From Patescibacteria group bacterium (GTDB lineage Bacteria; Patescibacteriota; Patescibacteriia; JBDRGY01): a stretch of DNA of 64,000 nucleotides. The position numbers were made by a program, and so were the translations under genes. How positions within the stretch are numbered: the stretch's first letter is position 1; every line of letters begins with the position of its first letter. The notes below the pieces were generated by a model. That model had not been told where the DNA came from. It saw only the letters and a list, made by a program, of their open reading frames with translations, and made no database searches. Shown in pieces: positions 34,976 to 64,000 of this stretch. The stretch is taken from assembly GCA_043817315.1 (NCBI GenBank), contig JBDRGY010000001.1, forward strand, positions 78,702-142,701. Direction: 5' to 3'.

Positions 34976-34977
34976 AT

Positions 34978-44421: not shown

Positions 44422-44451
44422 CTCCGGGGGAAACCCTGCCCCGGAGTTTTT
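44422..44451 (+). terminator. Intrinsic terminator downstream of tRNA-Gln: CTCCGGGG-loop(9 nt)-CCCCGGAG followed by TTTTT.
   Basis: GC-rich 8-bp stem followed by a 5-T tract. Confidence 0.55.
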
Positions 44452-44497
44452 AGTTAGAGAGTTTACCAAACCTTCTCTATTTGCTATAATTTGTGAT

Positions 44498-47121: not shown

Positions 47122-47125
47122 CAAT

Positions 47126-47890: not shown

Positions 47891-47894
47891 TGAA

Positions 47895-49136
47895 ATGAAA
47901 TTAATACCAACCCCAACTTCACCAAAAAAGCTACGTTCCAAGCAAGAGATAGAAAAATTCTACAAAACAGAAGATTTGAAATCAATCAAACAGCCTAACA
48001 GAAAGTGGCGTAGTTCAGTATTACTGGCAGTGGTCTTAGCTGCTATTTTTGGTTTTTTAGGAGGAGTAATTGGCGAGATAATAATAAATTCTTATATTCT
48101 TACCGAATCGGACATTCTAGAACAACTATATCTGGGAAAAAATACTACCAGTACTGTGACAACAGTCAAAAAAGATAAAAGTGAGCAGACGGTAACCTCT
48201 GAAACTATTAGCCGGGTTTCTAATAACTTGGTAGCCATCTATCAACAAAAAGAGGAAGGCTACTATCTGGCCAACCAGACCCTGGGCAGCGGAGTGATCT
48301 TAACCAGCGACGGTCTGGGAGTAACCACTAATGAGGTTATTACTGATCCGCAGTCAGATTTGGTGGTAATAACCCCAGCCAGAAAAATTTATACCATTAC
48401 CCATGTTTATGAGGACCCTATCAGCCCTTTGGTCTTCTTTAAATTTTCCGAAACTGGTTTGTCAGTGGCCGAACTAGTTAACCGACAGGATATTAGTTTG
48501 GGTGAGGAGTTGCTGGGGGTGCAAAACGTGATTGATAGCTCCCAGCGACAGGTTTTTTCCACCAAGGTAGCTCGTCTGTACTGGCATCCCGAAAATGGAT
48601 CGACTATCAGTTCATCAGAGAAATTAGCTGATTATCTTCGGGTTCACCCTGGACTTCCAGTCGATAGTTTATCGACTTCAATTGTTGACAGCTCAGGAAA
48701 GTTGGTTGGTATCTATTATACCAATCAGTCGACTTACCAAGCGGTTATCAGCTCAGATCTGATCAATTCTGCTTTGGATAGTATTTTGAACAACAATGAG
48801 ATAATTCGTCAATATTTAGGTGTCAATTACCTGGATCTATCGCAGATTTTAGATCCCGGGGGAGATGACAGTCACGGCTTAAAAAAGGGCGTTCTAATTA
48901 CTGGCGATGAATCTAGCGGAACTGTTGCCGTTCTGGCTGATAGTCCTGCTGAGGAATCAGGCATTACCTGGGGAGATATTATTCTAAGCATAGAGGAAGT
49001 AGAGATCAACCAGAAGAATTCTTTACCCAGCTTAATTCAGCAATGGCCCCTGGATCAGCCCCTGGAGTTTGAAATCCTACGCGACGGAAAAGAGAAGAAG
49101 ATTTCAGTTACCCTAACTAAGATAAACGAGCAATAA
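47895..49136 (+). CDS. Membrane-anchored HtrA/DegP-like trypsin-fold domain plus a C-terminal PDZ domain, with an apparently degenerate catalytic triad. The ORF-track start is a TTG at 47874.
   Basis: TM helix VLLAVVLAAIFGFLGGVIGEII. GSGVILTSDGLGVTTNEVI (the His of TNxHV is missing), DLVVIT, and DSSGKLVGIYY in place of GNSGGPL. PDZ segment GITWGDIILSIEEVEIN. Confidence 0.45.
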   Translation: MKLIPTPTSPKKLRSKQEIEKFYKTEDLKSIKQPNRKWRSSVLLAVVLAAIFGFLGGVIGEIIINSYILTESDILEQLYLGKNTTSTVTTVKKDKSEQTVTSETISRVSNNLVAIYQQKEEGYYLANQTLGSGVILTSDGLGVTTNEVITDPQSDLVVITPARKIYTITHVYEDPISPLVFFKFSETGLSVAELVNRQDISLGEELLGVQNVIDSSQRQVFSTKVARLYWHPENGSTISSSEKLADYLRVHPGLPVDSLSTSIVDSSGKLVGIYYTNQSTYQAVISSDLINSALDSILNNNEIIRQYLGVNYLDLSQILDPGGDDSHGLKKGVLITGDESSGTVAVLADSPAEESGITWGDIILSIEEVEINQKNSLPSLIQQWPLDQPLEFEILRDGKEKKISVTLTKINEQ

Positions 49137-49140
49137 AAAT

Positions 49141-51387
49141 ATGAAAAAAATATTTTCGACAATATTAGTCTTCATCTTTCTTTTTAGTTTCTTAATGCCC
49201 CAAGAAGTTTTTGCCAGAGAGGCCAAGACTGATTATCAGGCCTACATTGTAAAGTTTGCCGATAAGGACGAAATTACCAAAATGCATTTTTATTCCCAGG
49301 AAGAGGGCTATCAAATTATGAATAAAATTTCTCCGGATCGTCAGATAGAATACTTAGAACCTGATTATCCTATGTTTGCCAGCTTAGAAACCGATGATCC
49401 GGAGTATTCCAGACAATGGGCCTTTCCCCATATCAATGTACCTTCAGCCTGGGAGGAAACCACCGGAGATGATATTGTCATTGCCGTATTGGATTCGGGG
49501 GTAGATCTGGATCACCCCGACCTTGAAGGTAATCTATGGTCCAACGATGACGAAATTGCCGGCAATGGTATCGATGATGACAGCAACGGATACATAGATG
49601 ATGTCCTGGGCTGGGACTTTGTTGACGATGATAATGATCCCAACCCTGATTTATCAGAATACGACACTTATGTTAACACCAATAATTACCAAACTTGGTA
49701 TAGTGGCGTTAATCATGGCACTGTGGTAGCTGGACAAGTTGCTGCCATAGGCAACAACACAACTGGTATTGTCGGTGTAGCCTTTGATGCTAACATAATG
49801 GCTATCCGCACCCTTAACAGTCTGGGTGTTGGCTCCACTTCTTCGGTGGCCCAGGGAATTGATTTTGCAGTTGCCATGGGTGCAGATATTGTTAACCTGA
49901 GTTTTACCGGTAATGATACCAATGCCACTTTGCAAAATTCATTACAGAACGCCGCGGATAAAGGTGTCTTAATTGTGGCAGCCGCTGGAAATAATGATAA
50001 GAATTTAAATGATACCCCGGTTTATCCTGCCTGTAGCGATACCGGAGACGATAATATAGTATTGGGAGTGGCCTCGGTTGATGACGACAATCAAAAACCG
50101 AGCTGGTCTAATTATGGAGATGATTGTATCGATATAGCAGCCCCCGGAACCAATATATACAGCACAGTCGTATATAACACCGAAAAGTCCTTATCCGATT
50201 ATTATAGCAGTGGTTGGTATGGAACTTCAGTGTCAGCTCCTTTGGTTTCCGGAGTAGCGGCTTTAGTCAAGGCCAAGTTTCCTACTGCCACTAATTCTGA
50301 AATTATGGAAACCATTATTGATCATGCCGTAAGTCTGGATGGGGATAATCCTGATTATGTCGGGCAGCTGGGTGGCTTAATTGATGCCCATCAAAGCTTG
50401 GGCGTCCAGGAGATAGTGAGTATTGAGCCTTCTTTACTGGTAGCCGGAGCAGGATATGGGGGAGGTCCCCAGGTCAGGATATTTGATAGAGGAGGAAATT
50501 TAAGCTCGCAGTTCTTTGCTTTTGCTGAGGATTTTCGGGGCGGAGTCAATGTGGCCTTTGGCGACCTGGATCAGGATGACCAATTTGAAGTAATCGCTGG
50601 TGCTGGCCAAGGCGGAGGGCCCCAGGTACGGGTTTTTGACCAGGACGGTAATTTGTTATCACAATTCTTTGCTTATGACGAAAGTTTTCGAGGTGGCGTT
50701 AATGTAGCTTTGGGTGATGTTGACCAGGATGACCAAAATGAGATTATTACCGGAGCGGGTAACGGTGGTGGTCCTCAAGTGCGGGTTTTCGATACCGAGG
50801 GAAATTTGGAAAATCAATTTTTTGCCTATGGCGAGAATTTTAGAGGCGGTGTCTATGTCAATACAGGAGACTTGGATGGGGATGGAACTGATGAAATATT
50901 GACCGGAACCGGTAACGGAGGAGGACCCCAGGTACGAACTTTTGACGGTTATGGTAATGCAGTTTTTACACCCGGATTTTTCGCCTATGCCGAACATTTC
51001 CGAGGTGGGGTCTTGGTTTCAGCTGGAGATCTAAACGGTGACGGACTGGACGAAATCGTGACTGGTACCGGAGTTTCCGGCGGCCCTCACGTAAGAACCT
51101 TCGACAGATTTGGTAATGCAGTTTTTACACCCGGATTTTTTGCCTATGCCGAGCACTTCCGAGGCGGGGTCTTGGTTTCAGTCGGTGATTTAGATGGTGA
51201 TGGTACCGAGGAAATAATAACCGGCACTGGTTACGGCGGTGGCCCTCATGTCAGAACCTTTGATCGTTATGGAAACGCTGTTTTTACCCCAGGATTTTTT
51301 GCCTTCGCCGAAAACTTCCGAGGTGGAGTCAATGTTGCCTCCAGCCCTGGGATTACTACCACTACTTATCAATACGGCTTAGATTAG
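49141..51387 (+). CDS. Secreted subtilisin-like (S8) serine protease with an I9 propeptide, fused to a C-terminal FG-GAP beta-propeller of seven or more blades.
   Basis: Signal peptide. Catalytic Asp VIAVLDSGVDLDHPDL, His HGTVVAGQVAA and Ser GTSVSAPLVSGVAAL. Repeats GGGPQVRVFDQDGNLLSQFFAYDESFRGGVNVALGDVDQDDQNEIITGAG. Confidence 0.85.
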   Translation: MKKIFSTILVFIFLFSFLMPQEVFAREAKTDYQAYIVKFADKDEITKMHFYSQEEGYQIMNKISPDRQIEYLEPDYPMFASLETDDPEYSRQWAFPHINVPSAWEETTGDDIVIAVLDSGVDLDHPDLEGNLWSNDDEIAGNGIDDDSNGYIDDVLGWDFVDDDNDPNPDLSEYDTYVNTNNYQTWYSGVNHGTVVAGQVAAIGNNTTGIVGVAFDANIMAIRTLNSLGVGSTSSVAQGIDFAVAMGADIVNLSFTGNDTNATLQNSLQNAADKGVLIVAAAGNNDKNLNDTPVYPACSDTGDDNIVLGVASVDDDNQKPSWSNYGDDCIDIAAPGTNIYSTVVYNTEKSLSDYYSSGWYGTSVSAPLVSGVAALVKAKFPTATNSEIMETIIDHAVSLDGDNPDYVGQLGGLIDAHQSLGVQEIVSIEPSLLVAGAGYGGGPQVRIFDRGGNLSSQFFAFAEDFRGGVNVAFGDLDQDDQFEVIAGAGQGGGPQVRVFDQDGNLLSQFFAYDESFRGGVNVALGDVDQDDQNEIITGAGNGGGPQVRVFDTEGNLENQFFAYGENFRGGVYVNTGDLDGDGTDEILTGTGNGGGPQVRTFDGYGNAVFTPGFFAYAEHFRGGVLVSAGDLNGDGLDEIVTGTGVSGGPHVRTFDRFGNAVFTPGFFAYAEHFRGGVLVSVGDLDGDGTEEIITGTGYGGGPHVRTFDRYGNAVFTPGFFAFAENFRGGVNVASSPGITTTTYQYGLD

Positions 51388-51402
51388 TGATTATAAACTA
51401 GG

Positions 51403-51834
51403 ATGAAAAAATTATTAGCCAAACATCCTAACTTTATTCAATTTACTAAATTTTGTATTGTTGGTGCTTCTGGTGCGGCGGTCGATTTTGGGATTTATAC
51501 CTTGCTAAGAAAAGTGGTAGGTATGAATGAAATTCCGGCCACTGCCATTTCTGTCCCCTTAGCCATTTTGAATAACTTCATTTGGAATAAATACTGGACA
51601 TTTAAAAGGGGAAAATCACAACAGAGTTATCAAGAATCTGTTAAGTTTTTCGTGGTAAGTATGATTAACTATTTTATACATTTGGCGATTTTTAAAGGGT
51701 TGTTGGATTATACTTCCATTAAGCAATTACTCAGCAACAACGGAGACTATCTGGCCAAAACTATAGCAATTGGTGTAGTGATGATTTCCAATTATATTGG
51801 TAATAAATACTGGACTTTTCGCATAAAATCTTAG
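51403..51834 (+). CDS. GtrA-family membrane protein (putative polyprenyl-phosphate-sugar flippase component).
   Basis: KFCIVGASGAAVDFGIYTLL...NFIWNKYWTF; four TM helices in 143 aa. Confidence 0.75.
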   Translation: MKKLLAKHPNFIQFTKFCIVGASGAAVDFGIYTLLRKVVGMNEIPATAISVPLAILNNFIWNKYWTFKRGKSQQSYQESVKFFVVSMINYFIHLAIFKGLLDYTSIKQLLSNNGDYLAKTIAIGVVMISNYIGNKYWTFRIKS

Positions 51835-51857
51835 CTGATATTAGCTATTTTTACTGC

Positions 51858-51886
51858 ATTGAAAAAGTAGATATTTTTTGTTATAC
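51858..51886 (+). promoter_or_regulatory. Sigma70 promoter TTGAAA-17-TATACT upstream of the glycosyltransferase gene at 51912.
   Basis: ttgaaaaagtagatattttttgttatact. Confidence 0.5.
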
Positions 51887-51911
51887 TGACTTTACCCAGA
51901 ATCATTAAATA

Positions 51912-52631
51912 TTGAATAATTATTTGATGAACTTCTCACTTTCAATCGTTATTCCGGTTTATAATGAAGCGGCCAGAATTACCAAAAGCCTGGAGAAAAT
52001 AATCAAGTATTTTGAAAGAGATGATTATGAAATACTGATAATTGACGATGGTTCTTCGGATAGAACTCTGGATATAGTTCGCTCATTTAGAAACAATCGG
52101 ATCAGAATATTACGCAATGAAGTCAATTTAGGCAAGGGTTATTCTGTTAAAAAGGGAGTGTTAGCCGCTACCAAGAGTCATATTCTATTTTCTGACGCCG
52201 ATCTATCAACCCCCATTGCCGAATTTGAAAAATTCAAGCCCTATCTAAAAAGTCATGATATATTAATTGGTTCCAGGGCTATGACTAATTCTGATGTTAA
52301 GGTTCGTCAACCGATATATAAGGTGATCCTGGGCCGACTGGGCAATCTGATGATCCGCCTGCTGGCGGTTAAGGGAATCCAGGATACCCAGTGTGGTTTC
52401 AAGTTGTTTAACCGTCAGAGTAAAAAGTTATTTACCAAATCAACCATCTATCGTTGGGGGTTTGATTTCGAGATATTGTACATTGCCCAAAAGCAGAAAT
52501 TGAATATTAAAGAAATTCCGGTTGTCTGGGTAAACGATCCCAGAAGTAAGGTCAAAAAAATCGATTATCTGATTACCTTTTACGATTTAATAAAAATAAG
52601 AATTAATAATATTTTAGGAAAGTACAAATAA
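51912..52631 (+). CDS. GT2 polyprenyl-phosphate glycosyltransferase (GtrB/DPM1/ArnC-like).
   Basis: LSIVIPVYNEAARI, DDGSSD and DADLS (DxD) motifs; 239 aa. Confidence 0.75.
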   Translation: MNNYLMNFSLSIVIPVYNEAARITKSLEKIIKYFERDDYEILIIDDGSSDRTLDIVRSFRNNRIRILRNEVNLGKGYSVKKGVLAATKSHILFSDADLSTPIAEFEKFKPYLKSHDILIGSRAMTNSDVKVRQPIYKVILGRLGNLMIRLLAVKGIQDTQCGFKLFNRQSKKLFTKSTIYRWGFDFEILYIAQKQKLNIKEIPVVWVNDPRSKVKKIDYLITFYDLIKIRINNILGKYK

Positions 52632-52633
52632 TT

Positions 52634-53656
52634 ATGGCTAGACCGAAACCAATTTTTGAAAAAAAGAACATATTAATCACGGGTGGAGCCGGGTTTATCG
52701 GTTCTCACCTTTGTGATGAACTGATAAAGAAAAACCGGGTGATCTGTATTGACAATTTCTCTACCGGCAACGTTCAAAATATTGAACATCTTCTCAAAAA
52801 TCCAGATTTTAAATTTATCAAACATGATATAGCCGAACCCCTTGATCTTGACAGCTTACCTGACCTAGAACCTTTTAAAGTTGCCTTTCAAGGAGTACAG
52901 GATGTTTATAATCTGGCTTGCCCCACTTCACCCAAAGATTACAACAAATTTCCCGTGGAAACCTGTCTAGCCAATTCACATGGAACAAAAAACGCTCTCG
53001 ACTGGGTAGTCAAATACCAATCTAAGTTTTTACATCTATCAACTTCTGCTGTCTACGGCGATCCGATTGAGGACCAACCCCTGCTAGAAAAATATTGGGG
53101 CTATATAGATCCTATTGGTCCCAGATCATGTTATAACGAGGGCAAGAGGTATGCAGAATGCCTGACAACTAATTACGCTCTTACTCATAAGATCGCCATA
53201 AAGATTGCCAGGGTATTCAACACTTATGGGCCTCGGATGAGATTAACAGACGGACGCATGATTCCCGACTTTGTCACTGCCGCAATCGAAAATAAGGATT
53301 TGATAATCTACGGAGATGGCAAACAAGTTAGTTCCTACTGTTATATTGATGATTTAGTCGAGGGCATAATCAAATTCATGAATGCAGAAATTACTGGTCC
53401 GATCAATATGGGAAGTCCTAAGGTATATACAATCCTGGATATTGCCAATAAAATAATCGAAATCACCGGCTCCGATTCCAAGATTGTTTACAAAGACCCC
53501 ATTCTCTTTCTGGCCAAACAGGGAGTGCCGGACATTACTTGGGCCAAGGAGAAGATCGGCTGGTTTCCCATTATTTCTCTGGAAGATGGACTGCAAAGGA
53601 CCATTGATTATATGAAAGGCAGCAAGGCAGTGGGTTTCGAACAGGTTAAAATATAA
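52634..53656 (+). CDS. UDP-glucuronate decarboxylase (UDP-xylose synthase)-type short-chain dehydrogenase/reductase (SDR).
   Basis: [33 protein letters not shown]; catalytic YNEGKRYAE; 340 aa. Confidence 0.75.
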   Translation: MARPKPIFEKKNILITGGAGFIGSHLCDELIKKNRVICIDNFSTGNVQNIEHLLKNPDFKFIKHDIAEPLDLDSLPDLEPFKVAFQGVQDVYNLACPTSPKDYNKFPVETCLANSHGTKNALDWVVKYQSKFLHLSTSAVYGDPIEDQPLLEKYWGYIDPIGPRSCYNEGKRYAECLTTNYALTHKIAIKIARVFNTYGPRMRLTDGRMIPDFVTAAIENKDLIIYGDGKQVSSYCYIDDLVEGIIKFMNAEITGPINMGSPKVYTILDIANKIIEITGSDSKIVYKDPILFLAKQGVPDITWAKEKIGWFPIISLEDGLQRTIDYMKGSKAVGFEQVKI

Positions 53657-53674
53657 ATATTAAGCAAATAAAAA

Positions 53675-54841
53675 ATGACAGACACCATCAATAAAAGAAA
53701 CTATTTTTTTACTTCAGAGTCGATGACCGAGGGTCATCCCGACAAGGTTTGTGATCAGATATCTGATTCAATCTTAGATTCAATATTAAAGAAGGATAAA
53801 TACGGTCGAGTAGCCTGCGAAACTATGTGCGGCAAGGGATTTATTATTGTAACCGGTGAAATATCCACCAAGGCCTATGTCAATGTGGAGAAGATCGCCC
53901 GAGAAGTCCTTCTGGAAATTGGTTACGATAAACCGGAATACGGTTTTGATTATCAAAGTGTAGGCGTTTTAGTATCCATTAATGAGCAAAGCCAAGATAT
54001 TGCCCGGGGAGTGAAAAAAACTTCTTCAGCGCAGCAGGGAGCAGGGGATCAGGGAATGATGACTGGCTATGCCTCTAACGAAACTCTCCAAATGATGCCC
54101 CTGCCCATTATGATGGCTCATAAGTTGGCCATAGGACTAAGCCAAGCCAGAAGGAAGGGGGTTATCCCTTACCTGAGACCTGATGGCAAGACTCAAGTGA
54201 CGGTTGAATACAAATCAGGTAAGCCAGTCCGTATAGACAGTGTGGTTGTGGCCAATCAGCACGATCCGGAAGTTGCCCTCAAAAAAATTCAAAATGATAT
54301 CAGGAAAAAAGTTATTATTCCAGTTTGCGGCAAATGGCTAGATAAAAAGACAAAGGTATATATTAACAACACAGGGCGTTTCGTGATTGGGGGTCCGGTG
54401 GCTGATTCAGGCTGCACCGGTCGTAAAATCATCGTGGATACCTACGGAGGCATAGTGGGACATGGTGGAGGTGCCTTTTCCGGTAAAGATCCCACCAAAG
54501 TTGATCGCTCTGCTGCCTATATGGCTCGCTACATCGCCAAAAATGTAGTAGCAGCCGGTTTAGCCGATAAATGCGAAGTGCAATTAGCTTACGTAATCGG
54601 AGGCAATAAACCGTTGTCCATAATGATTAACACTTTGGGTACCGGTAAAATTTCCGAAAAGAGAATATTGGGATTGGTTAAGAAAAACTTCAAATTGATG
54701 CCTGGTGATATTATCAGACAGCTGGATTTATTGAGACCGATTTATCGCAAAACAGCCAATTATGGTCATTTTGGCAGAGGAGGGTTTTCTTGGGAGAAGA
54801 CTGATATGGCTGATAAATTAAAGAAACAAGCAGGGTTATGA
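53675..54841 (+). CDS. metK: S-adenosylmethionine synthetase (bacterial type).
   Basis: [32 protein letters not shown] and [19 protein letters not shown]. Confidence 0.9.
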
Positions 54842-55764
54842 AAATATTGGTAACCGGCGGCGCTGGATTCATCGGCTCGCACCTAGTTGATAAATTAGTG
54901 ACGGAAGGTCACCAGGTGGCGGTTGTTGATGATTTGTCCAGTGGCAGCCAAGAGAATCTAAATGAGAAGGTAGATTTTCTGGAAATTGATATCAGCGATC
55001 AGTCCAAGATTAATGACTTATTGTCCAAAGAGAAGTTTGAAGTGATAGTGCACACGGCTGCTCAGAAAAACGTTCGTTATTCGGTCGACAATCCTCAATT
55101 TGATGCTGAAATAAATATTGTCGGTAGCCTCAATCTTCTGGAGGCAGGCCGCAAAGCCGGATTGCGCAAATTTATATTTTTATCAACCGGCGGAGCTATC
55201 TACGGAGATACTGATGATCGTCCTACCCCAGAATCTCATTTACCTAAGCCAGCCTCCCCATATGGCATTACCAAACTGGCAGTGGAAAATTACCTGTATT
55301 ACTACCAGTTGCAATACCAGTTGCCTTATGTAGCTTTACGCCTGTCTAACGTTTACGGTCCCAGGCAGGATCCTAAAGGTGAAGCGGGGGTAGTGGCCAT
55401 TTTTTACACCAAAATCAAACAAGGAGAACAACCGATAATAAATGGCGACGGTAAGCAAACCCGGGATTATATTTATGTAAGTGATGTGGTGGAAGCGGTT
55501 AGCCTAAGTCTTGGAGATAAAGCTCTGGGTATTTATAATGTGGGAGTATCTAAGGAGACATCGGTCAATCAACTTTTTAAAGAAATTGTTCAGTCAGTCG
55601 GTCAGGAAATTCCTGAAAAGCACGGCCCGGCCTTGCCCGGTGAGCAGCAAACCAGTTGCCTCGACATTACCAAGATCAAAGAACGATTGGGTTATCAGCC
55701 CAAGGTGGATTTGGAAGCGGGGCTTAAACAAACTAAAGAATGGTTTTATCAGAATGAAGGATAA
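54838..55764 (+). CDS. NAD-dependent sugar-nucleotide epimerase (GalE-like short SDR).
   Basis: [19 protein letters not shown]; catalytic [11 protein letters not shown]. Confidence 0.75.
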
Positions 55765-57067
55765 TAATAAAATTTGCGTTTTAGGTACTGGCTACGTAGG
55801 TTTAGTCTCTGGCGTATGCTTTGCAGAAATGGGTAATCTGGTAACTTGTATTGACAGACATAAGGATAAAGTAGAGATGATGAGGAAAGGAAAGTCACCA
55901 ATTTTCGAACCCGGACTTTCAGAACTGATGAAAAAAAATATTAAAAAAGAGCGACTGTTTTTTGAAACTTCACTGAAAAAGGGCATGAAAGGGGCCACCA
56001 TGGTGTTTATCTGTGTGGGCACCCCGCCCAAGAAGAATGGGGAAGCTGATTTAAGCCACGTCAAAAAGGCAGCGCAGCAGATAGCCAAGAATCTCCAGAA
56101 ATACACCCAGATCGTTATTAAAAGCACGGTACCGGTAGGTACCTCAGCCATGACAGAAAGGCTCATCAGGAGGCATTGTAAGGCCGAATTCGACGTCCTA
56201 TTCTGTCCTGAGTTCTTACGGGAGGGTTCAGCCGTGGGGGATTTCTTAAAGCCGGATCGGGTGGTGATCGGAGCCACCGACAAAAAAATAGCCCGTGATT
56301 TGGTCCAGGTTTTCAAAGAATTGAAAGCTCCGATTTTCGTTACCAACCGATCCAGTTCCGAATTAATAAAATATGCCTCCAACTGTTTCCTGGCCAACAA
56401 AATCTCCTTAATCAACGAAATCGCCAATGTTTGCGAATACACCGAGGCTGACGTAGAGGAGGTGGCCCATGGTGTTGGCTTAGATAAAAGAATCGGACCT
56501 CATTTTCTAAAAGCGGGGATTGGCTACGGCGGCAGTTGTTTCCCCAAAGACGTTCATGCCCTCAATCAGTACGCCGGGGCCAAAGGATACGATTTTAAGT
56601 TATTAAAAGCGGTTATCAAGGTCAACCAACAACAAAGAGATAATTTCGTCAAAAAAATTGAGAAACGCTTGGGTAATTTAAAGGATAAAAGAATCGCTGT
56701 TCTTGGCTTGGCTTTCAAGGGCAATACAGATGATATTCGGGAGTCGGCAGCTATCGAAATCATCAAAGCCCTAACCAAAAAAGGAGCCAAAATTCAAACT
56801 TACGATCCTGAAGCCATCAATCGGGCCAAAGAAGTGCTGGACGGCCAAGTGCGGTATTTTAGAAATCCTTATTCCGCGATCCGCAATTGTGATCTGTTGG
56901 CCATAACCACAGAGTGGCCGGAATTTAAAAAATTAAGCTGGCGTAAAATCAAAACGCTTCTTAAAAACCCCATTATCCTGGACGGCAAGAATATGCTGGA
57001 CGGAGTCAAGTTGAGGAAAATGGGATTTGATTATCAGGGAGTGGGAACCAGCAACGGAACTAAATAA
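55754..57067 (+). CDS. ugd: UDP-glucose 6-dehydrogenase. The true ATG is at 55754 ([17 protein letters not shown]). The ORF-track N-terminal extension back to 55511 is out-of-frame read-through of the epimerase gene.
   Basis: ICVLGTGYVGLVSGVCFAEMGN; catalytic GGSCFPKD; C-terminal UDP-binding domain. Confidence 0.85.
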   Translation: MKDNNKICVLGTGYVGLVSGVCFAEMGNLVTCIDRHKDKVEMMRKGKSPIFEPGLSELMKKNIKKERLFFETSLKKGMKGATMVFICVGTPPKKNGEADLSHVKKAAQQIAKNLQKYTQIVIKSTVPVGTSAMTERLIRRHCKAEFDVLFCPEFLREGSAVGDFLKPDRVVIGATDKKIARDLVQVFKELKAPIFVTNRSSSELIKYASNCFLANKISLINEIANVCEYTEADVEEVAHGVGLDKRIGPHFLKAGIGYGGSCFPKDVHALNQYAGAKGYDFKLLKAVIKVNQQQRDNFVKKIEKRLGNLKDKRIAVLGLAFKGNTDDIRESAAIEIIKALTKKGAKIQTYDPEAINRAKEVLDGQVRYFRNPYSAIRNCDLLAITTEWPEFKKLSWRKIKTLLKNPIILDGKNMLDGVKLRKMGFDYQGVGTSNGTK

Positions 57068-57075
57068 TCAATACT

Positions 57076-58383
57076 ATGAAAAAAACCAAAAAAACTAAGA
57101 AATCGGTTGGAAAACGAAAAACAATTGCCATTGTTGGCATCGGCTATGTGGGATTGCCCCTGGCTTGTTTATGTGCCAATAAGGGTTATAAGGTATTCGG
57201 TATAGGTAAAGACAGAGACAAGATCGCAATGGTTAATGCCGGGATCAGTCCTATCAAGGATCGACCACTTCAGATAGATGTCAAAAAGCAACTGATTGAA
57301 GCTACCGACGATTACCGGGTGATTAAGAAAGCTGGTATCGTGATTATTTGTGTACCTACACCAGTTGACGATCTTTACACTCCTGATTTGGGCCCGGTGC
57401 GTTCGGCCAGTGAAGGAGTACAGAAAAATTTGACAAAAGGACAACTGGTTATCGTGGAATCAACCATCAACCCCGGCGTTTGCGAAGAAGTGGTTTTGCC
57501 AATTTTAGAAAGACAAGGAAAGAAAGTCGGCCGGAATTTCTATCTGGCCCATTGTCCCGAGAGAATAAATCCTGGAGATAAAAAATGGAAAGTCCATAAC
57601 ATTCCCCGAGTAGTCGGTGCTTTCACCTCCAGAGGATTAGCTATGGCAGTAAAATTCTATGAGAGTATTCTTAATGCTCCTGTCAGGCCGATGAAGACGA
57701 TCAAGGAAGCCGAAGCTACCAAGATTGTAGAGAATTCGTTCCGTGATATCAATATCGCTTTTGTCAATGAATTGGCCCGTTCCTTTGACCGGTTGGGTAT
57801 TGATGTTCATGAGGTTATCCAGGGAGCAGCCACTAAACCTTTCGCTTATATGCCCCATTATCCGTCTATCGGAGTAGGGGGGCATTGTATCCCGGTAGAT
57901 CCCTATTATTTGATTGAAAAAGCCAAGCTGCTGGGGTTTGATCACGAATTTTTAAAACTGGCCAGAGTGATCAATAATCGAATGCCTTATTACGGAGTCA
58001 AAGCCCTGCAGAGGAATTTGAACACCATCAAGAAGTCAGTTAAAGGCACCAAGGTGGGAGTCTTGGGGTTGTCATATAAGGCTGACGTCGGTGATATGCG
58101 GGAAACCCCAACTAAAAAAGTAATTGAATACCTCAAGGTTTTGGAGGCTGAAGTTCACCTTTATGATCCCCATTTCCTGGAACTATCGACGGAAAGAAGT
58201 CTCGACGAGCTTTTGGAAAAAGTTGAGGCCATTATCTTATGTACTAACCACAAAGAATTTGTAGAGATGGACTTGAATAAACTGAAGAAAAACAAAATAA
58301 AAGTAATCATCGATGGCAAAAACTGTTGGGACAAAGAAGCCATTACCAAACTGGGCATAATTTATAAAGGAATCGGCCGCTAA
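57076..58383 (+). CDS. Second nucleotide-sugar dehydrogenase (WecC/WbpA/TviB-like UDP-HexNAc dehydrogenase family).
   Basis: IAIVGIGYVGLPLA, catalytic GGHCIPVDP and the C-terminal domain GLSYKADVGDMRETP. Confidence 0.8.
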   Translation: MKKTKKTKKSVGKRKTIAIVGIGYVGLPLACLCANKGYKVFGIGKDRDKIAMVNAGISPIKDRPLQIDVKKQLIEATDDYRVIKKAGIVIICVPTPVDDLYTPDLGPVRSASEGVQKNLTKGQLVIVESTINPGVCEEVVLPILERQGKKVGRNFYLAHCPERINPGDKKWKVHNIPRVVGAFTSRGLAMAVKFYESILNAPVRPMKTIKEAEATKIVENSFRDINIAFVNELARSFDRLGIDVHEVIQGAATKPFAYMPHYPSIGVGGHCIPVDPYYLIEKAKLLGFDHEFLKLARVINNRMPYYGVKALQRNLNTIKKSVKGTKVGVLGLSYKADVGDMRETPTKKVIEYLKVLEAEVHLYDPHFLELSTERSLDELLEKVEAIILCTNHKEFVEMDLNKLKKNKIKVIIDGKNCWDKEAITKLGIIYKGIGR

Positions 58384-58385
58384 CT

Positions 58386-59342
58386 ATGAGATTAGTCATT
58401 ACCATACCGGCCTATAACGAAGAAAAAACTATTGCCAGCGTCATTAGGGGAATCCCCAGGCAGCTTGAGGGAATTGACGAGGTGAAAATATTGGTAGTTG
58501 ATGACGGCTCAACTGATAATACGGTCAGAGTCAGCCAGGAGGCTGGCGCCGATTATGTGGTTTCTCACCAAAATGTCGGCTTAGCTACCAATTTTAGAAT
58601 TTCCCAGGATGAAGCCCTGCAAAGAGGGGCTGATATTATCATAAATATTGATGCTGATAACCAGTACGACCCCAACGAAATCCCAAAATTGATCAAACCG
58701 ATTCTAGACAATGGGGCGGAAATTGTTTCCGGAGACCGGCAAGTTAAAAGATTAGACCACATGCCCATTTCCAAAAAATACGGTAATCTGTTGGGTACCT
58801 GGGTGGTCAGGAGGGTGTCTGGTTTGCCGATAAGGGACGCTTCGTCAGGATTTCGAGCTTATTCCCGGGAGGCCGCTTTAAGACTAAACGTGATCTCTCA
58901 ACATACCTATACTCATGAAACGATTATTCAGGCTGCCAATAAACACCTTAGATTTATCGAAGTACCGTGTACTTTCCGGGAAACCGAGAGGGCCAATCAA
59001 GAATCCAGATTGATCGGTGGCGTCTGGGGCCATATCAAAAAATCAGGAGCTACAATTGTTCGCACCTATTCGACTTATCGTTCTCTCAAAACATTCTTTT
59101 ATATCGGGTTGCCCTTTATTTTGGTCGGCACTTTTTTTATTTTAAGATTTTTTTACTATTACTTTTTCAATTCGGGAGCAGGCCACATCCAGTCTTTAAT
59201 TATTGCTGCGATCCTGATTATTGTCGGTTTTCAGGTATTTGTGATCGGGTTAATGGCTGATGGCATTAGTGCTAATAGAAAAATAAATGAGGAGATTTTA
59301 TACCGCCTGAATAAGGAGAAGTATAACGGTAATAGAAAATGA
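58386..59342 (+). CDS. GT2 polyprenyl-phosphate glycosyltransferase with two C-terminal TM helices (GtrB/ArnC-like).
   Basis: ITIPAYNEEKTI, VDDGSTDNT and DADNQ. C-terminal hydrophobic helices FFYIGLPFILVGTFFIL and LIIAAILIIVGFQVFVIGLM. Confidence 0.75.
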   Translation: MRLVITIPAYNEEKTIASVIRGIPRQLEGIDEVKILVVDDGSTDNTVRVSQEAGADYVVSHQNVGLATNFRISQDEALQRGADIIINIDADNQYDPNEIPKLIKPILDNGAEIVSGDRQVKRLDHMPISKKYGNLLGTWVVRRVSGLPIRDASSGFRAYSREAALRLNVISQHTYTHETIIQAANKHLRFIEVPCTFRETERANQESRLIGGVWGHIKKSGATIVRTYSTYRSLKTFFYIGLPFILVGTFFILRFFYYYFFNSGAGHIQSLIIAAILIIVGFQVFVIGLMADGISANRKINEEILYRLNKEKYNGNRK

Positions 59343-60400
59343 AGGTCTTATTTATATGTGGCAGAGAACCTGAATATTCCAGAAATGCCTTATTATTGAA
59401 AGCACTGAAGAACCGTTATGAAGTAATTGAATGTACCAGCCAGGCTGCAAAATACTCGTTTCGGTTTTTGCATATCATAACTAAGTTTCTATTTCAATAT
59501 CACAATGCTGATCTTATATTTGTCGGTTTTCTGGGCCAGCCCCTGGTAATTTTGATCAGGTTGCTTACCAAAAAACCGATTATTTTTGATGCCTTTATTT
59601 CGCTATTTGATACAGTTTGCTTTGATCGGAAAAAAGCTTCGCCAAATTCACTTGTAGGAAAATTCTGTTTTTGGCTAGATCAAACATCTTGTCAGAAAGC
59701 AGATAAGGTTATTGTTGATACAAAAACGCACAGAGATTATTTTATTGAAATGTTTCGAATACCCCCCGGTAAGGTTGAATATATCTATGTGGGGGCCGAG
59801 GAGTCCGTTTTTTCATCTCAGAAATTTGTAGAGCGAAAAAACGATAAGACAACCATATTCTATTATGGCACTGGTCTTCCTTTGCAGGGCGTGGATATCA
59901 TCCTCAAAGCTGCCAAGAGAATTGAATCTGAGAAAAACATTGTTTTTAGAATTGCAGGACCGATTAATAATAGATGCAGTGCATTGATTCGAGAACTAAA
60001 TCTGTGCAATGTGCGATTTCTCGGCTTCGTACCCTACAGAAAACTATCAGAAGAAATTGGAAGGGCCGATATTTGTTTAGGCGGACATTTTTCTAATATC
60101 GACAAAGCCAAAAGGGTGATTGCCGGGAAAACATTTCAGTTTATTGCCATGAAAAAACCGGTGATCATCGGAGATAATGAAGCAAATAAGGAGTTGTTCA
60201 TCGACGGAGAAAGTTGTAAAATGGTAAACATGGCAGATCCAGATGATTTGGCGAAAGCGATTATTGATTTAAAGTCCGATAATCAATTGAGAGATAAAAT
60301 TGCTAATCGAGCCTATCAGGTCTTTCAAGAGAAATGCAGTTTGGACATTATTACCCAGCAAATATTTGATATTCTCGGTAAATACGAGAAATCATCCTAG
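59339..60400 (+). CDS. Glycosyltransferase with a GT-B fold (GT1/GT4-like).
   Basis: FYYGTGLPLQGVDIILKAAKRI...FRIAGP C-terminal GT-B domain; 353 aa. Confidence 0.6.
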   Translation: MKVLFICGREPEYSRNALLLKALKNRYEVIECTSQAAKYSFRFLHIITKFLFQYHNADLIFVGFLGQPLVILIRLLTKKPIIFDAFISLFDTVCFDRKKASPNSLVGKFCFWLDQTSCQKADKVIVDTKTHRDYFIEMFRIPPGKVEYIYVGAEESVFSSQKFVERKNDKTTIFYYGTGLPLQGVDIILKAAKRIESEKNIVFRIAGPINNRCSALIRELNLCNVRFLGFVPYRKLSEEIGRADICLGGHFSNIDKAKRVIAGKTFQFIAMKKPVIIGDNEANKELFIDGESCKMVNMADPDDLAKAIIDLKSDNQLRDKIANRAYQVFQEKCSLDIITQQIFDILGKYEKSS

Positions 60401-60401
60401 T

Positions 60402-62231
60402 ATGAATAAATTTCGTTTTCTTAATAAAGGGATAAAAACAAATTTAATAGAATCGATTCTGTTATCGATTATAATATGTTTTATTGCCCAGTTATTTTTT
60501 TTGTATTTAAACCTTTTTCAATATACTAAATACCTTTCGTTTCTGCTAATAGTAATCTTCATTTATTTTTTCCGAAAATATACCTCTCACTCAACAGAAA
60601 TAAAAATCAAATTAATCATATTACTTTTAATTATTTCTTTTTTTACCGCCTTTTTCACGACCAAAGATATTAATGCGGGCCGTGATAACGGGGCATATCT
60701 CAATGACAGTTTATTGATTAATAAGAGTAACACCTATATATACCAGGATGCTGTTTTGGCTACTTTTCCTGGTTTTACTAATTTAGAAGACGGAGAGACA
60801 GTTTTAGGTTTTCCTATCGGCTATTCGCTATTTTTAACCTTGTTTCATTTGGGCAAGATGAGTTTTTTGTTTTTGGCAAATTTTATCTTATATTTCTTTA
60901 TTCTTTACTGTGTCTACAAAATAAGCTCAGTATTATTTGAGCGGGCTAATCCACTCTATAGTGTAATATTTTTTTCAACTTTCTATACCAGCATTTGGAT
61001 AACCAGGAATTTCTATTCAGAAAATCTGACTTGTTTTTTATTACTAGGCGCACTGACACTTTTATTGTCCAATAATAAAAACATCAAGTTACTTTCGGCA
61101 ATACCGGCAGTTGCTACGTTGCTAGTCAGGTTAGACACCCTTATTTACCTGCCGATTTTTCTAGTTATTTACTTTATTGAAATCAAGCGGATCAAGGGCC
61201 GAATAGAAAAAAAACTTGTTCTGTTTTTGTTTTTGGCTTTAGCCATAGTCTTTTTTGCCTTCTATTTCTATTCGGTTTCAATCAATGATGAGTATCTGAT
61301 AAATCATTTTAAGGAATTTGTAAGCCCGATAAAAAATTTGTTTTTCGAAGACAACACTACTGGAATAACTGATTTTACCAATCTGCATTTTCCCATGGGC
61401 TATTATACGTTGAAGGTTTTTTCGGCCTATTTATTGCCGGTATTTTTCGCCCTAGCCGTTTTTGGCCTATTCCGCATTTTGAGAAATCGTCATAGGAATA
61501 CCCGATACATTATTTATACGTTGTTATTTTTTGCCCCTTCGTTATTTTTTATTTTCAAGCCGATGATTACGATTGATCACCCCTGGTTCATGAGAAGATT
61601 CTATCCTGCATTCATACCCCTGTTAATTATCCTGGCTGTTTCTTTTTTTGAGAAAAAACTGAAAAAAGGTGATTACATTATTATAATCTTATTAGTTATC
61701 GGCAATCTGGTTAATGTGGCTCCTATTCTATTTTTCAGAGATTACCGTGATTCACCAGTGATGGCAGAACAGTTGGCCGATTCCTTGCCTGACGATTCAG
61801 TATTAATTGTAGCCAGCGGATCTCAGAATACCCTATCAACCTATATGTACATAAATTATGATATTATTTCCAGCATCGAGCCAGCCTACTGGTCTTGGTT
61901 AGATAGAAAATATCCCAATGATTTATTAACTAAACAATATATACTTGATAATTTTGCTGAGAACAAAGAAATCTTTGTGCTATCTAAAGTTAACCCCAGT
62001 TTAGAGAAGGGGACATCGATTTCTAATGTGTTTACCAATGATGAATTAGTCTATCTGAAAGAATATCAATATACAACCCCGGCCATTAAATACTCCTGTG
62101 ATTTCAGGGCGGAATTTCTCAACCAGCAAGCGAATAAAGAAATGATTGACCAAACCTGTGACGATCTCCCCCCCACAGAAATTTCGCAGAAAGTGATTAA
62201 CTTCTATATATATCAATACCAGCCAAGCTAG
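60402..62231 (+). CDS. Large polytopic membrane protein with a C-terminal extracytoplasmic domain. It is a candidate GT-C-type (ArnT/PMT-like) glycosyltransferase or polymerase. The ATG at 60402 (MNKFRFLNK) is preferred over the ORF-track start at 60300.
   Basis: About 12 predicted TM helices, then a soluble tail of about 170 aa. An acidic first-loop segment (DINAGRDNGAYLND). Genomic context with polyprenyl-phosphate GT2s and GtrA. Confidence 0.45.
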   Translation: MNKFRFLNKGIKTNLIESILLSIIICFIAQLFFLYLNLFQYTKYLSFLLIVIFIYFFRKYTSHSTEIKIKLIILLLIISFFTAFFTTKDINAGRDNGAYLNDSLLINKSNTYIYQDAVLATFPGFTNLEDGETVLGFPIGYSLFLTLFHLGKMSFLFLANFILYFFILYCVYKISSVLFERANPLYSVIFFSTFYTSIWITRNFYSENLTCFLLLGALTLLLSNNKNIKLLSAIPAVATLLVRLDTLIYLPIFLVIYFIEIKRIKGRIEKKLVLFLFLALAIVFFAFYFYSVSINDEYLINHFKEFVSPIKNLFFEDNTTGITDFTNLHFPMGYYTLKVFSAYLLPVFFALAVFGLFRILRNRHRNTRYIIYTLLFFAPSLFFIFKPMITIDHPWFMRRFYPAFIPLLIILAVSFFEKKLKKGDYIIIILLVIGNLVNVAPILFFRDYRDSPVMAEQLADSLPDDSVLIVASGSQNTLSTYMYINYDIISSIEPAYWSWLDRKYPNDLLTKQYILDNFAENKEIFVLSKVNPSLEKGTSISNVFTNDELVYLKEYQYTTPAIKYSCDFRAEFLNQQANKEMIDQTCDDLPPTEISQKVINFYIYQYQPS

Positions 62232-64000
62232 ACTAAAGAGGCAACCAATTTCTTGAATTGATTTGCGGCTATGTCCCAGCTATATTGACGAGAATAACTC
62301 AAACCATCTTCAATTACCCTGTCTCTGAATTGTTTTTCATCTCGCAGTCTTATTAGTAGTCTATAGAGTTCATCGCAGTTTAATTTACTAAGAATGACTG
62401 TTTTACTAATGATCTCTTTTGGCATATTTTTTGAATGCAAAGTAATAACCGGACAACCGCAACGCTGAGCCTCAATAATAGGAAAACCAAATCCTTCATC
62501 AGAAGAGAGAAATAATAAACCGAGAGATCGATTATACAAATCAATCAGCCGTTCGTCATTTACGTCTTTGATAAAGTTGATATTATTGTTTTGTCTTTCT
62601 TCATTCCCTATGACCGTCAAAGATAGTTTTCCATATTTATTAAAACAATCTAATACGAAATTGGTGTTCTTCCAAACTTCTTTTCGATCGAATGTTAAAA
62701 AATAATCTCTCTTTTCAGTCGAATAGCTTCTAAATTTTTCACTTACCCCGCTGTTTATTTTTTCAATTAAACCGGGGGATAAATGATATTTTTGTATTAG
62801 ATCCCTTTCTGTAACACTTGATATGGCAACTACCTTGTCTGATTTTCTCAAAATACGGCCCAAAAAGTGCCTGTATACAAATTTCATTAGAATGCTGGGA
62901 CTATAACGTAAGGGGATAAGGTCATGTACCACCGAGATTATCTTGAGATCGTAAGGATTAATTACAGGATGAAATTGGTAGGGATAGATTAACAAAGAGT
63001 ATCTTTTTTTTATTTCAAAAGGAGCAACAATTCGATATAAAGCTTTTTTTAGCTTGACCGATTCTTTCAGAAAATCAAGATATTTAAGGTGGAGCTTGTT
63101 TTCGACTTCTTCGGTGAACTTATTTTCTTCATAATAAATTAACTCAAGGTTTAGTCCGATCTTTTTCAAGGACGTATAAAGATTTTCTTGATAATTTTTT
63201 ATACCATAAGAGATGCTCGGTTCGTAGAAAAAGCCGATTTTTTTTGATTTATTGCCTTGGGCTTTTTCCCTTTTAATAATCATTCTGGCGTCTTTGATGC
63301 CCCTTAGCCAAGATTGGAACTTTACTTTAGGGAAAATAATCCGGGCCAAGACAGTTTTTAGGCCTATTTGGATTGTTATGAATGTTAAAGATTTAAATCG
63401 GTTTTTATTATAACGATAATTAAAAATCAAGCGGTTTCTGGAAAAGTGGTATATATAAAATGGACTTCTGGTTTTTGAGGACCGGCTGATTTTGTGATAG
63501 ACTATAGAGTCCTGGGCGACTATCAGTTTTTTGCCAGTTGCTTTAACTCTTTGACACAAATCGGCATCCTCAAAATAGCAAAAGTAAACGGGATCGAATA
63601 AACCCGTTTCCTTTAAGACTTCGACTGGAATCAACATGGCACATCCGGTAACAAAGTCGGTATATTTTCGATTATCTTTTTTCAGATGATGGGGTCGTGC
63701 CAACCACCAATTTATTTTTCCGCCGGCGAAATTAATTTCTCCGGTATTTTCGTTTATAATTTTAGAACCGATAATTCCTGCTTCCGAGTGTTCCAATGCC
63801 TTATCGACCAGCTTGGTCAAAAAATCTTTTTCTACAATTGTATCATTGTTTAAAAGTAGCACGTAATCTGTTTTTCCTTCTTTCAAGATCTCTTTAAAGG
63901 CGGTATTATTGCCCCCGGCAAAGCCCAAGTTGACCTCGTTTCTAATTAATTTTATATAGTCACCAAACTTTTTTTTCAAGATATCAGCGTCATTGCCTAA
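62228..64000 (-). CDS. Bifunctional GT2 and GT4 glycosyltransferase, 5'-partial. The reading frame is open to the window end and TTG at 63979 is only an in-window start. Its stop overlaps the convergent 60402 gene by 4 nt.
   Basis: The GT2 core NLGFAGGNN lies only 17 aa from the apparent start, so the N-terminus is missing. C-terminal GT-B EGFGFPIIEAQRCGCPVIT (E-x7-E) motif. Confidence 0.7.
   Translation of the reverse strand, partial: LGNDADILKKKFGDYIKLIRNEVNLGFAGGNNTAFKEILKEGKTDYVLLLNNDTIVEKDFLTKLVDKALEHSEAGIIGSKIINENTGEINFAGGKINWWLARPHHLKKDNRKYTDFVTGCAMLIPVEVLKETGLFDPVYFCYFEDADLCQRVKATGKKLIVAQDSIVYHKISRSSKTRSPFYIYHFSRNRLIFNYRYNKNRFKSLTFITIQIGLKTVLARIIFPKVKFQSWLRGIKDARMIIKREKAQGNKSKKIGFFYEPSISYGIKNYQENLYTSLKKIGLNLELIYYEENKFTEEVENKLHLKYLDFLKESVKLKKALYRIVAPFEIKKRYSLLIYPYQFHPVINPYDLKIISVVHDLIPLRYSPSILMKFVYRHFLGRILRKSDKVVAISSVTERDLIQKYHLSPGLIEKINSGVSEKFRSYSTEKRDYFLTFDRKEVWKNTNFVLDCFNKYGKLSLTVIGNEERQNNNINFIKDVNDERLIDLYNRSLGLLFLSSDEGFGFPIIEAQRCGCPVITLHSKNMPKEIISKTVILSKLNCDELYRLLIRLRDEKQFRDRVIEDGLSYSRQYSWDIAANQFKKLVASLV

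Follow-up and report, generated by a model that had tools for sequence, protein, structure and literature searches.

We analyzed a 64,000-nucleotide stretch of contig JBDRGY010000001.1 (hereafter the window) from a Patescibacteria metagenome-assembled genome (MAG), and focus on the genes for sugar-nucleotide enzymes and glycosyltransferases that occupy its last part. A reading made earlier from the letters of the window (the sequence-only reading) had described a glycosylation cluster of about 12.6 kb there. Open reading frame (ORF) listing and profile searches recovered all of the gene families that it named, in the places where it had put them and with strong scores. The cluster is indeed present at 51403-64000, but the window edge truncates it and it probably continues beyond. 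Its genes are the following.

51403-51834, + strand: GtrA-family small membrane protein (PF04138, 111 bits)
51912-52631, + strand: GT2a, a soluble DPM1-like GT2 glycosyltransferase of 239 amino acids without a transmembrane (TM) segment (PF00535, 103 bits)
52634-53656, + strand: UXS-family short-chain dehydrogenase/reductase (SDR) of the extended type, the UXS_A paralogue (human UXS1 2b69, 274 bits)
53675-54841, + strand: MetK, S-adenosylmethionine (SAM) synthetase (TIGR01034, 573 bits; cut-off 309)
54838-55764, + strand: GalE-like UDP-sugar 4-epimerase (T. maritima GalE 4zrm, 304 bits; PF01370, 224 bits)
55754-57067, + strand: Ugd, UDP-glucose 6-dehydrogenase (TIGR03026, 467 bits; cut-off 190)
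57076-58383, + strand: second nucleotide-sugar dehydrogenase, UDP-N-acetylhexosamine (UDP-HexNAc) type, WecC/Cap5O/TviB-like (TIGR03026, 403 bits)
58386-59342, + strand: GT2b, a membrane-anchored GT2 of the GtrB/ArnC/DPMS type with two C-terminal TM helices (PF00535, 89 bits)
59339-60400, + strand: GT4, a cytoplasmic Leloir-type glycosyltransferase (PF00534, 67 bits; PF13692)
60402-62231, + strand: polytopic glycosyltransferase of predicted GT-C fold, 609 amino acids, ATG at 60402 (identical to NCBI protein ABIB97_00765)
62228 to >64000, - strand: GT2-GT4 fusion glycosyltransferase (PF13641 for GT2, 47 bits; PF00534 for GT4, 52 bits)

Intergenic spacing in the cluster ranges from -11 to +18 nucleotides, the exception being the 77 nucleotides between GtrA and GT2a, and the 3' end of metK overlaps the start of the GalE-like gene by 4 nucleotides. 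The true ATG of Ugd is at 55754; the ORF of GT2a starts with a TTG at 51912 and has its first ATG at 51927. The GT2-GT4 fusion is convergent with the GT-C gene and loses its N-terminus to the window end: no stop codon occurs at 63979-64000, and the GT2 domain begins at position 53 of the PF13641 profile, with about the first 50 positions missing. Since all genes from 7249 to 62231 (about 55 kb) lie on the + strand with very small gaps, adjacency in this single genome has little weight, and the weight comes from conservation in relatives. A promoter and terminator scan of 47000-64000 gave counts at chance level, so that no operon boundaries can be called.

The polytopic protein and its candidate partners

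The 609-amino-acid protein has about 13 TM helices and a C-terminal extracytoplasmic domain of about 165 amino acids. Its family is large (3194 cluster representatives at E<=1e-3 in an exhaustive profile search); among its seven closest homologues, six have a PF13231 PMT_2 match (best E 8.5e-10), and NCBI names one close homologue 'glycosyltransferase family 39 protein'. The predicted structure was decisive for its assignment. In fold comparison, an AlphaFold2 model built from a 78-sequence alignment (pLDDT 88.3, pTM 0.92) found its best structural matches in ALG12 and ArnT, both of which are monophosphate-donor enzymes. The top matches include ArnT, AftD, STT3, AglB and PglB, Z drops to 6.9 below them, and Foldseek agrees. 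By this model the protein is a GT-C fold glycosyltransferase, and its status rests on the predicted structure because the family profile matches no PDB sequence. The sequence-only reading had called the protein GT-C-like; the fold search of the model speaks against the alternative of a ligase, polymerase or transporter without GT-C features.

Two residues, D95 and P394, are invariant across the 78 family members, and E207, R243, E245, W395, R398 and R399 are at least 90% conserved. When the AlphaFold2 helices are oriented by the positive-inside rule, the protein crosses the membrane 13 times, its N-terminus lying inside and its C-terminal domain outside. Under this predicted topology D95, E207, R243/E245, D392 and R398/R399 would all lie on the outer face, D95 in the first large outer loop as a single Asp in a G-R-D context, with no literal DxD. 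An outward-facing active site is predicted accordingly from the topology, not from a superposition. The loop motif D-x-P-W-F-M-R-R-F is conserved, and in sequence terms the family is a divergent GT-C branch that carries this loop, the window protein falling under the PMT_2 threshold. For residues ~445-609, the C-terminal alpha/beta domain, Foldseek returned weak matches to the Rossmann-type methyltransferases RlmA and BioC (probability 0.5-0.94, TM-score 0.13-0.29), which probably reflect a generic alpha/beta similarity.

Structures of STT3, AglB and PglB are among these top matches. With an enzyme of the PglB/AglB kind, the GT4 and GT2-GT4 enzymes would assemble an oligosaccharide on undecaprenyl pyrophosphate, a MOP-family protein would flip it, and the GT-C would then pass it as one unit to surface proteins. 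We consider an oligosaccharyltransferase improbable here. The WWD motif (WWD(xG)) that defines STT3, PglB and AglB occurs nowhere in the 609-amino-acid protein, and we rejected these identities for that reason. Its close homologues match PMT_2 and not STT3, and the best structural matches, ALG12 and ArnT, use monophosphate donors. The near-universal partner of the protein, GT2b, is of the GtrB/ArnC type, which makes monophosphate-linked sugars, and neither the window nor the relatives examined showed a priming phosphoglycosyl transferase.

A Wzy polymerase, WaaL ligase or EpsG-like identity of the protein, with the locus as a polysaccharide cluster of the usual Wzx/Wzy kind, is very unlikely. 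A weak Pfam match to EpsG (20.3 bits, E 3e-4; cut-off 30.1) and the Polysacc_synt flippase of relatives speak for such a cluster, but it is largely refuted by the fold search, with no Wzy, WaaL or SEDS structure among the matches of the model. The Wzy, WaaL and EpsG identities were rejected because no profile of these families scored above threshold and the fold is not WaaL/SEDS-like.

Two GT2 enzymes are candidates for supplying a GT-C enzyme with a lipid-linked donor. The best PDB match of GT2a is the catalytic domain (residues 17-221) of the P. furiosus dolichol-phosphate mannose synthase (DPMS) 5mlz, at 54 bits, followed by GtrB sll0501 and ArnC; the only PDB sequence match of GtrA is the TM domain (residues 255-352) of the same 5mlz (E 2e-8, 37.5 bits). 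Because they match the catalytic and the TM part of one enzyme, GT2a and GtrA look like a split DPMS. GT2a is thus a putative polyprenyl-phosphate sugar synthase working with GtrA. For GtrA, the match suggests that it may anchor or activate GT2a, either in place of flipping the lipid-linked sugar or in addition to it. The best NCBIfam match of GT2a is PgfS at 61 bits, far under the cut-off of 500, and the PpgS model NF058614 gives 51.5 bits (cut-off 370). GT2b has its C-terminal TM helices at 237-255 and 271-289. In the PDB it matches DPMS at 66 bits and aligns with ArnC over the full length, and its top NCBIfam matches are AglJ (115 bits), Dol-P-hexose transferase (80), PpgS (73) and ArnC (60), all below cut-offs. 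We class it as a putative polyprenyl-phosphate sugar synthase with its own two-helix anchor. The combination of GtrA, polyprenyl-phosphate-type GT2 and GT-C that had been proposed for this cluster is borne out by these family matches together with the predicted GT-C fold.

Conservation in relatives, the altered UXS paralogue and metK

Relatives were collected by protein-identity look-up and a motif scan for the GT-C family, with one genome per species, which yielded 23 loci (designated here by L and a number). Most of the records are labelled as Patescibacteria-type MAGs, including Kerfeldbacteria and Saccharibacteria, and others as 'bacterium' or 'uncultured bacterium'. Loci L015 and L019 are labelled 'uncultured Gammaproteobacteria' and L021 'uncultured archaeon' despite Patescibacteria-type synteny or GT-C homologues, probably through binning or labelling errors. 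Nineteen loci extend far enough upstream of the GT-C gene to be informative; in 18 of them an orthologue of GT2b (47-62% identity) precedes this gene on the same strand. Because the loci were retrieved by GT-C alone, and the window proteins were mapped onto them only afterwards, this linkage is independent evidence that GT2b and the GT-C act together.

The array GT2a - UXS_A - MetK - (GalE/UXS_B) - Ugd/DH2 - GT2b, where DH2 is the second dehydrogenase, recurs in rearranged form in L001, L005, L007, L014, L015, L016, L020, L024 and L026. The order is GT2a - UXS_A - MetK - Ugd - GT2b in L001, L015 and L020, MetK - GalE - UXS_B - Ugd - GT2b in L007 and L016, and GtrA - GT2a - UXS_A - MetK - UXS_B - Ugd - GT2b in L024 and L026; the layout closest to the window is that of L005 (S8 - GtrA - GT2a - UXS_A - MetK - GalE - DH2 - GT2b). 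GtrA is directly upstream of GT2a in L005, L013, L024 and L026. A GT4 gene holds the same position in L001 and L005, but BLAST detects no similarity between the sequences. Identity to the relatives is 22-32% for the GT-C as against 46-63% for the sugar-nucleotide enzymes, MetK and GT2b. GC content is 0.34-0.35 over the GT-C and GT2-GT4 genes (60001-64000) and 0.39-0.45 over the sugar-nucleotide genes; these two low-GC genes are the least conserved of the locus, as is commonly seen for variable genes that set glycan specificity.

In the relatives, the genes found downstream of the GT-C are additional members of the GT4 and GT2 families, one for a MOP-family flippase (Polysacc_synt in L001, MurJ-family in L005) and, in six loci, one for a class I methyltransferase. 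In ten loci (L001, L005, L007, L009, L014, L015, L016, L020, L024 and L026) a polytopic protein of about 1000 amino acids is encoded 6-8 kb downstream (16259-19303, - strand, in L001; 16883-19855, - strand, in L005). It has 8-9 TM segments in its first 440 amino acids, followed by about 550 soluble residues, and neither Pfam nor NCBIfam recognizes it; in hhalign its membrane core shows a weak similarity to the GT-C family (probability 89.5%, E 2e-6). The protein may be a second GT-C, which in this genome would lie just past the window end. Because relatives carry these further genes, the window probably shows only the first part, about two-thirds, of a locus of about 20 kb. A literature search found no report of this locus in Patescibacteria.

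Among the sugar-nucleotide enzymes, Ugd, the GalE-like epimerase and the HexNAc-type dehydrogenase agree with the sequence-only reading (TIGR03026, 4zrm and 4r16 matches). Ugd scores 531 bits against the TuaD equivalog, under its cut-off of 700, and is 46-56% identical to the dehydrogenase adjoining GT2b in most relatives. The second dehydrogenase is 62% identical to the sole dehydrogenase of L005, and its best PDB matches are the UDP-ManNAc dehydrogenase 4r16 (248 bits), Cap5O (219 bits) and the NDP-GalNAcA dehydrogenase 3g79 (193 bits).

The remaining enzyme of this group had been taken for a UXS that makes UDP-xylose. The family assignment stands, with 274 bits to human UXS1 versus 128 bits for the next family, and the protein keeps the T118, Y147, K151 triad, the Rossmann GxxGxxG motif and the overall length of human UXS1. 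The assigned product is weakened. Alignment in human UXS1 numbering shows Glu120 replaced by Ala (STSAVYG versus STSEVYG) and Arg277 by Gly, and 14 extra residues follow the position of residue 65. Eixelsberger et al. (PMC3438964) describe Glu120 and Arg277 as residues that do not vary among UXS enzymes, and efficient decarboxylation and retention of the 4-keto-pentose depend on them. In human UXS1, E120A lowers kcat about 100-fold, so that UDP-xylose still forms with about 1% of the kcat of the wild type, and the R277Q enzyme goes no further than UDP-4-keto-pentose (PMC3438964). The relatives hold two paralogue classes: UXS_A, always beside GT2a, is always without both residues (A/S/T and G/V/A in their places in 8 of 8 distinct GT2a-linked orthologues), and UXS_B, beside Ugd, has both Glu and Arg (five Ugd-linked paralogues). 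The 4-epimerases that act on UDP-glucuronic acid (UDP-GlcA) have Ser and Thr at the two positions.

Relatives that have UXS_A often keep a canonical UXS too, and the two enzymes therefore appear to do different jobs. The window holds UXS_A only. Because UXS_A has lost Glu120 and Arg277 and the window has no canonical UXS, UDP-xylose is not secure here, and judged by its residues the 52634-53656 protein should not be classed as a canonical UXS. Its product could be UDP-GalA, a 4-keto-pentose, a HexNAc-uronate derivative or slowly formed UDP-xylose. We find it doubtful that the cluster makes UDP-xylose through this enzyme and that xylose is the sugar delivered. The closeness to human UXS1, the presence of Ugd and the residual activity of E120A would allow it, but both invariant residues are lost, the R277Q enzyme stalls before UDP-xylose, and the relatives L014, L024 and L026 keep a canonical UXS by Ugd in addition to UXS_A. 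A literature search found no report of a lipid-phosphate-xylose donor.

The sequence-only reading had remarked that metK is atypical in a sugar cluster, and had offered methylated sugars or operon packing as explanations. The embedding holds up, as metK is inside the block in nine of ten assessable relatives despite differing gene order, being absent in L013; between the two explanations the odds are roughly even. A housekeeping gene could have come to lie there by operon packing and inherited gene order, as a passenger with no role in the glycan, and we put the chances of this slightly below one half. Consistent with a passenger, 55 kb of unrelated genes are packed on one strand with minimal gaps, dnaX and corA lie within the same gene run, and genes for a DUF5656 protein and a PDZ protease are syntenic across the same relatives. 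MetK appears fully canonical (with all three domains, PF00438, PF02772 and PF02773), the block of L013 lacks it, and Pfam searches found no methyltransferase in the visible part of the window's cluster. Set against this, metK is kept though the flanking order varies (UXS_A-MetK-Ugd; UXS_A-MetK-GalE-DH2; MetK-GalE-UXS_B-Ugd; UXS_A-MetK-UXS_B-Ugd), in genomes diverged enough that their GT-C proteins are only 22-32% identical to that of the window, and the clusters of L007, L016, L018, L015, L020 and L021 include class I methyltransferases. The retention of metK through several rearrangements and the methyltransferases in half of the metK-containing loci speak for a functional link; the most likely role would be the supply of SAM for glycan methylation, although metK may be no more than a passenger. 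Lipoarabinomannan capping in M. tuberculosis (methylthioxylose; a SAM-derived sugar, a GT2 and a GT-C) was dropped as a main explanation of metK because the Ugd and UXS-family genes point to UDP-GlcA chemistry.

Neighboring genes and a proposed pathway

Three genes immediately upstream of the cluster encode proteins recognized by Pfam.

47126-47890, + strand: DUF5656-like membrane protein
47874-49136, + strand: PDZ/trypsin-like protease
49141-51387, + strand: S8 subtilase with FG-GAP repeats

The DUF5656 and PDZ protease genes lie directly upstream of GT2a or GtrA in L001, L013, L015 and L020 (in L026 only the PDZ protease is visible). The S8 subtilase is directly upstream of GtrA in the window and L005, and no more than about 7 kb away in L012, L023 and L025. 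These three could be partners in envelope biogenesis, substrates, or a matter of inherited gene order.

Giant exported proteins are encoded at 10404-41422, with a signal-anchor-like N-terminal segment and with beta-helix, GHL15, CBM, C25 peptidase, fn3 and FG-GAP domains. They had been placed next door to the cluster, which proves too close: their array ends at 41422, about 10 kb away, behind a methyltransferase, dnaX, corA and others, and no conserved link between the giant proteins and the glycosylation cluster was found in the relatives. Both dnaX (42721-44256) and corA (44408-45421) are interspersed between the surface-protein and the glycosylation genes. A search for Ser/Thr-rich disordered segments in the neighboring exported proteins turned up nothing striking.

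Several further features of this region were recorded. A VirD4/TraG-like coupling ATPase (7848-10400; T4SS-DNA_transf and TrwB matches) heads 11 further co-directional, mostly large genes, and products of this run (7848-41422) also have CBM_4_9, C25 propeptide and MopE-like metal-binding motifs. Three neighbors at 28317-37944 look like paralogues: all have 'AGNTYYV' at the N-terminus and, around residues 500-570, a MopE motif. Two paralogous CorA-family Mg2+ transporters lie within 40 kb (5090-6043, - strand, and 44408-45421, + strand; PF01544, 199 and 195 bits). Between the giant-protein array and dnaX, 41460-41993 encodes a class I methyltransferase-like protein of 177 amino acids with a hydrophobic N-terminal segment and weak Pfam matches at or below threshold; it is unrelated to the in-cluster methyltransferases of the relatives.

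Patescibacteria are monoderm and are not known to have lipopolysaccharide (LPS), and for this reason the acceptors are plausibly cell-wall polymers or surface proteins. The analogies with O-antigen and lipid A modification drawn in the sequence-only reading cannot be applied literally to such a host, and Gram-positive multi-component systems are better analogues.

We read the segment, with a probability of roughly 70%, as the first two-thirds or so of a conserved Patescibacteria envelope-glycosylation locus that works with lipid-linked donors and GT-C transfer outside the membrane. In this pathway, cytoplasmic enzymes would first make donors of the UDP-uronic-acid type, Ugd forming UDP-GlcA and the HexNAc-type dehydrogenase a UDP-HexNAc uronate, and the GalE-like 4-epimerase and the UXS-derived SDR of altered chemistry would diversify them. 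The two GT-A fold GT2s would then charge polyprenyl phosphate with sugar, GT2b being self-anchored and GT2a paired with GtrA. The lipid-linked monosaccharide may be flipped by GtrA or by a MOP-family flippase such as relatives encode downstream. On the outer face of the membrane the 609-amino-acid GT-C would move the sugar to its acceptor by means of the invariant Asp95 in the first outer loop, with the conserved D-x-P-W-F-M-R-R-F loop binding the lipid phosphate. The GT4 and the GT2-GT4 fusion would act as cytoplasmic Leloir enzymes, probably building the glycan that is decorated or a second glycan.

Several observations weigh against this pathway. The window GT-C has no PF13231 PMT_2 match at gathering score; its sole Pfam match is the sub-threshold one to EpsG, and its sole NCBIfam match, to an LA_3751/LA_3752 putative glycosyltransferase, reaches 54 bits (cut-off 200). 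Neither the GT-C alone nor the 78-sequence family profile found a relevant PDB sequence. The assignment of GT2a to polyprenyl phosphate draws on modest scores (43-54 bits) and on its neighbor gene, and the window has one GT-C for two candidate lipid-sugar synthases. The absence of a priming phosphoglycosyl transferase from the window and the relatives examined counts here as well. Tight packing is the rule in this genome, as the 55-kb co-directional run shows, and the DUF5656 and PDZ protease genes are also syntenic, so that the conservation may partly be inherited gene order. What the pathway says of its sugar donor, lipid carrier and acceptor is in each case a prediction.

The Patescibacteria (Candidate Phyla Radiation, CPR) are a very large and mostly uncultured group with tiny genomes, many of them attached to host cells, and how their envelopes are built and decorated is poorly known. 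A glycosylation locus of this size, retained in distant lineages whose genomes are so reduced, probably matters to the cell surface. It is tempting to speculate about an ancestral, phylum-wide surface-decoration machine with lipid-linked donors that have yet to be described, in which polyprenyl-phosphate-xylose (in relatives whose canonical UXS lies between Ugd and GT2b) and a second, UXS_A-derived donor made by way of the split DPMS-like GT2a/GtrA pair would serve two GT-Cs (those of 609 and about 1000 amino acids), metK would provide for methyl groups, and the resulting surface would mediate episymbiosis; as a whole we hold this to be unlikely. Concrete candidates for study are GT2b, the GT-C, the metK gene within the locus and the UXS paralogue with its altered residues. 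This paralogue also offers a natural way to probe the roles proposed for Glu120 and Arg277, by which UDP-GlcA would be steered between decarboxylation and other outcomes.

Comparison with known systems

The Arn pathway comprises Ugd, ArnA, ArnB, ArnC, ArnD, ArnE/F and ArnT, and Rhizobium uses RgtE/RgtA-D with the LpsL epimerase. Membership in the Arn pathway was rejected: no aminotransferase, formyltransferase or deformylase domain, corresponding to ArnB, ArnA and ArnD, was found in 41460-64000 or in the relatives' clusters examined, and for lack of these three activities 4-amino-4-deoxy-L-arabinose (Ara4N) is not an expected product. The locus differs further in that the lipid A/LPS acceptor of the Arn and Rhizobium systems is absent from the phylum, and ArnA shares with UXS the Glu and Arg that the UXS-like enzyme of the window has lost.

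The resemblance to P. furiosus DPMS, of GT2a to its catalytic domain and of GtrA to its TM domain, differs from the archaeal enzyme in that the parts are separate genes, with that of GtrA first. In M. tuberculosis the soluble-type GT2 PpgS (Rv3631; NCBIfam NF058614) is helped by a GtrA-family protein (Rv3632) and feeds a GT-C (Rv3779). The putative GT2a, GtrA and GT-C arrangement shares this design, with modest scores (5mlz, 54 and 37.5 bits; PpgS model, 51.5 bits). Human UXS1 and the bacterial UDP-glucuronate decarboxylases are the closest family of the altered SDR, with which it has the GxxGxxG motif, the Thr/Tyr/Lys triad and the length in common; it departs from human UXS1 in the Ala and Gly that stand for Glu120 and Arg277, in the 14-residue insertion, and in the pairing of its gene with GT2a rather than Ugd.

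The streptococcal Pgf system carries out protein O-glycosylation. A related report concerns GtrB/PgtC-type protein O-glycosylation of extracytoplasmic Ser/Thr-rich regions (PMC11092751). The Pgf and GtrB/PgtC systems have in common with the present locus a monoderm host and a GT2, an epimerase and GT-C-type membrane proteins, which in those systems act on surface proteins; they differ from it in that PgfS is matched here far under its cut-off (61 versus 500 bits) and that the exported neighbors have no striking Ser/Thr-rich segments.

The closest parallels are with Gram-positive multi-component systems, which include CsbB/GtcA/YfhO and GtlA/GtcA/GtlB for teichoic acids, CsdAB/CflA of Lactococcus, GtsABC of B. 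anthracis and GacI/GacJ/GacK/GacL of S. pyogenes (PMC8035078). Such systems combine a GT-A fold GT2 that makes a sugar linked to C55 polyprenyl phosphate (C55-P-sugar), a GtrA- or Wzx-type flippase and an outside-acting polytopic GT-C, often with PMT_2, and the review describes a variant in which a soluble GT-A works with a separate membrane protein (PMC8035078). Both variants are seen here, as the anchored GT2b and as the soluble GT2a with the small membrane protein GtrA. The structural top matches of the GT-C (ArnT, AftD, STT3, AglB and PglB) are those of the review, and the hosts are again monoderm. A GT2 with anchor or partner, GtrA (PF04138), a GT-C by predicted fold, an Asp predicted to lie in an outer loop and GT2-GT-C linkage are all present by sequence and architecture; the system would form a C55-P-sugar and transfer it to an extracytoplasmic polymer or protein. 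The differences are that this locus lies in a Patescibacteria MAG, that its donors would be derived from uronic acids and not Glc, Gal or GlcNAc, that metK and the modified UXS paralogue are conserved inside it, and that its GT-C is divergent, with the DxPWFMRRF loop and a score below the PMT_2 threshold.

In summary, the locus adds a case from a little-studied phylum to the multi-component transmembrane glycosylation systems already known. Its notable features are the phylum-wide conservation, the embedded metK, a UXS-derived enzyme without the decarboxylase signature, the split DPMS-like pair and a divergent GT-C with its DxPWFMRRF loop. As the mechanism is of a known type, the finding extends current understanding rather than changing it, and contradicts none of it.

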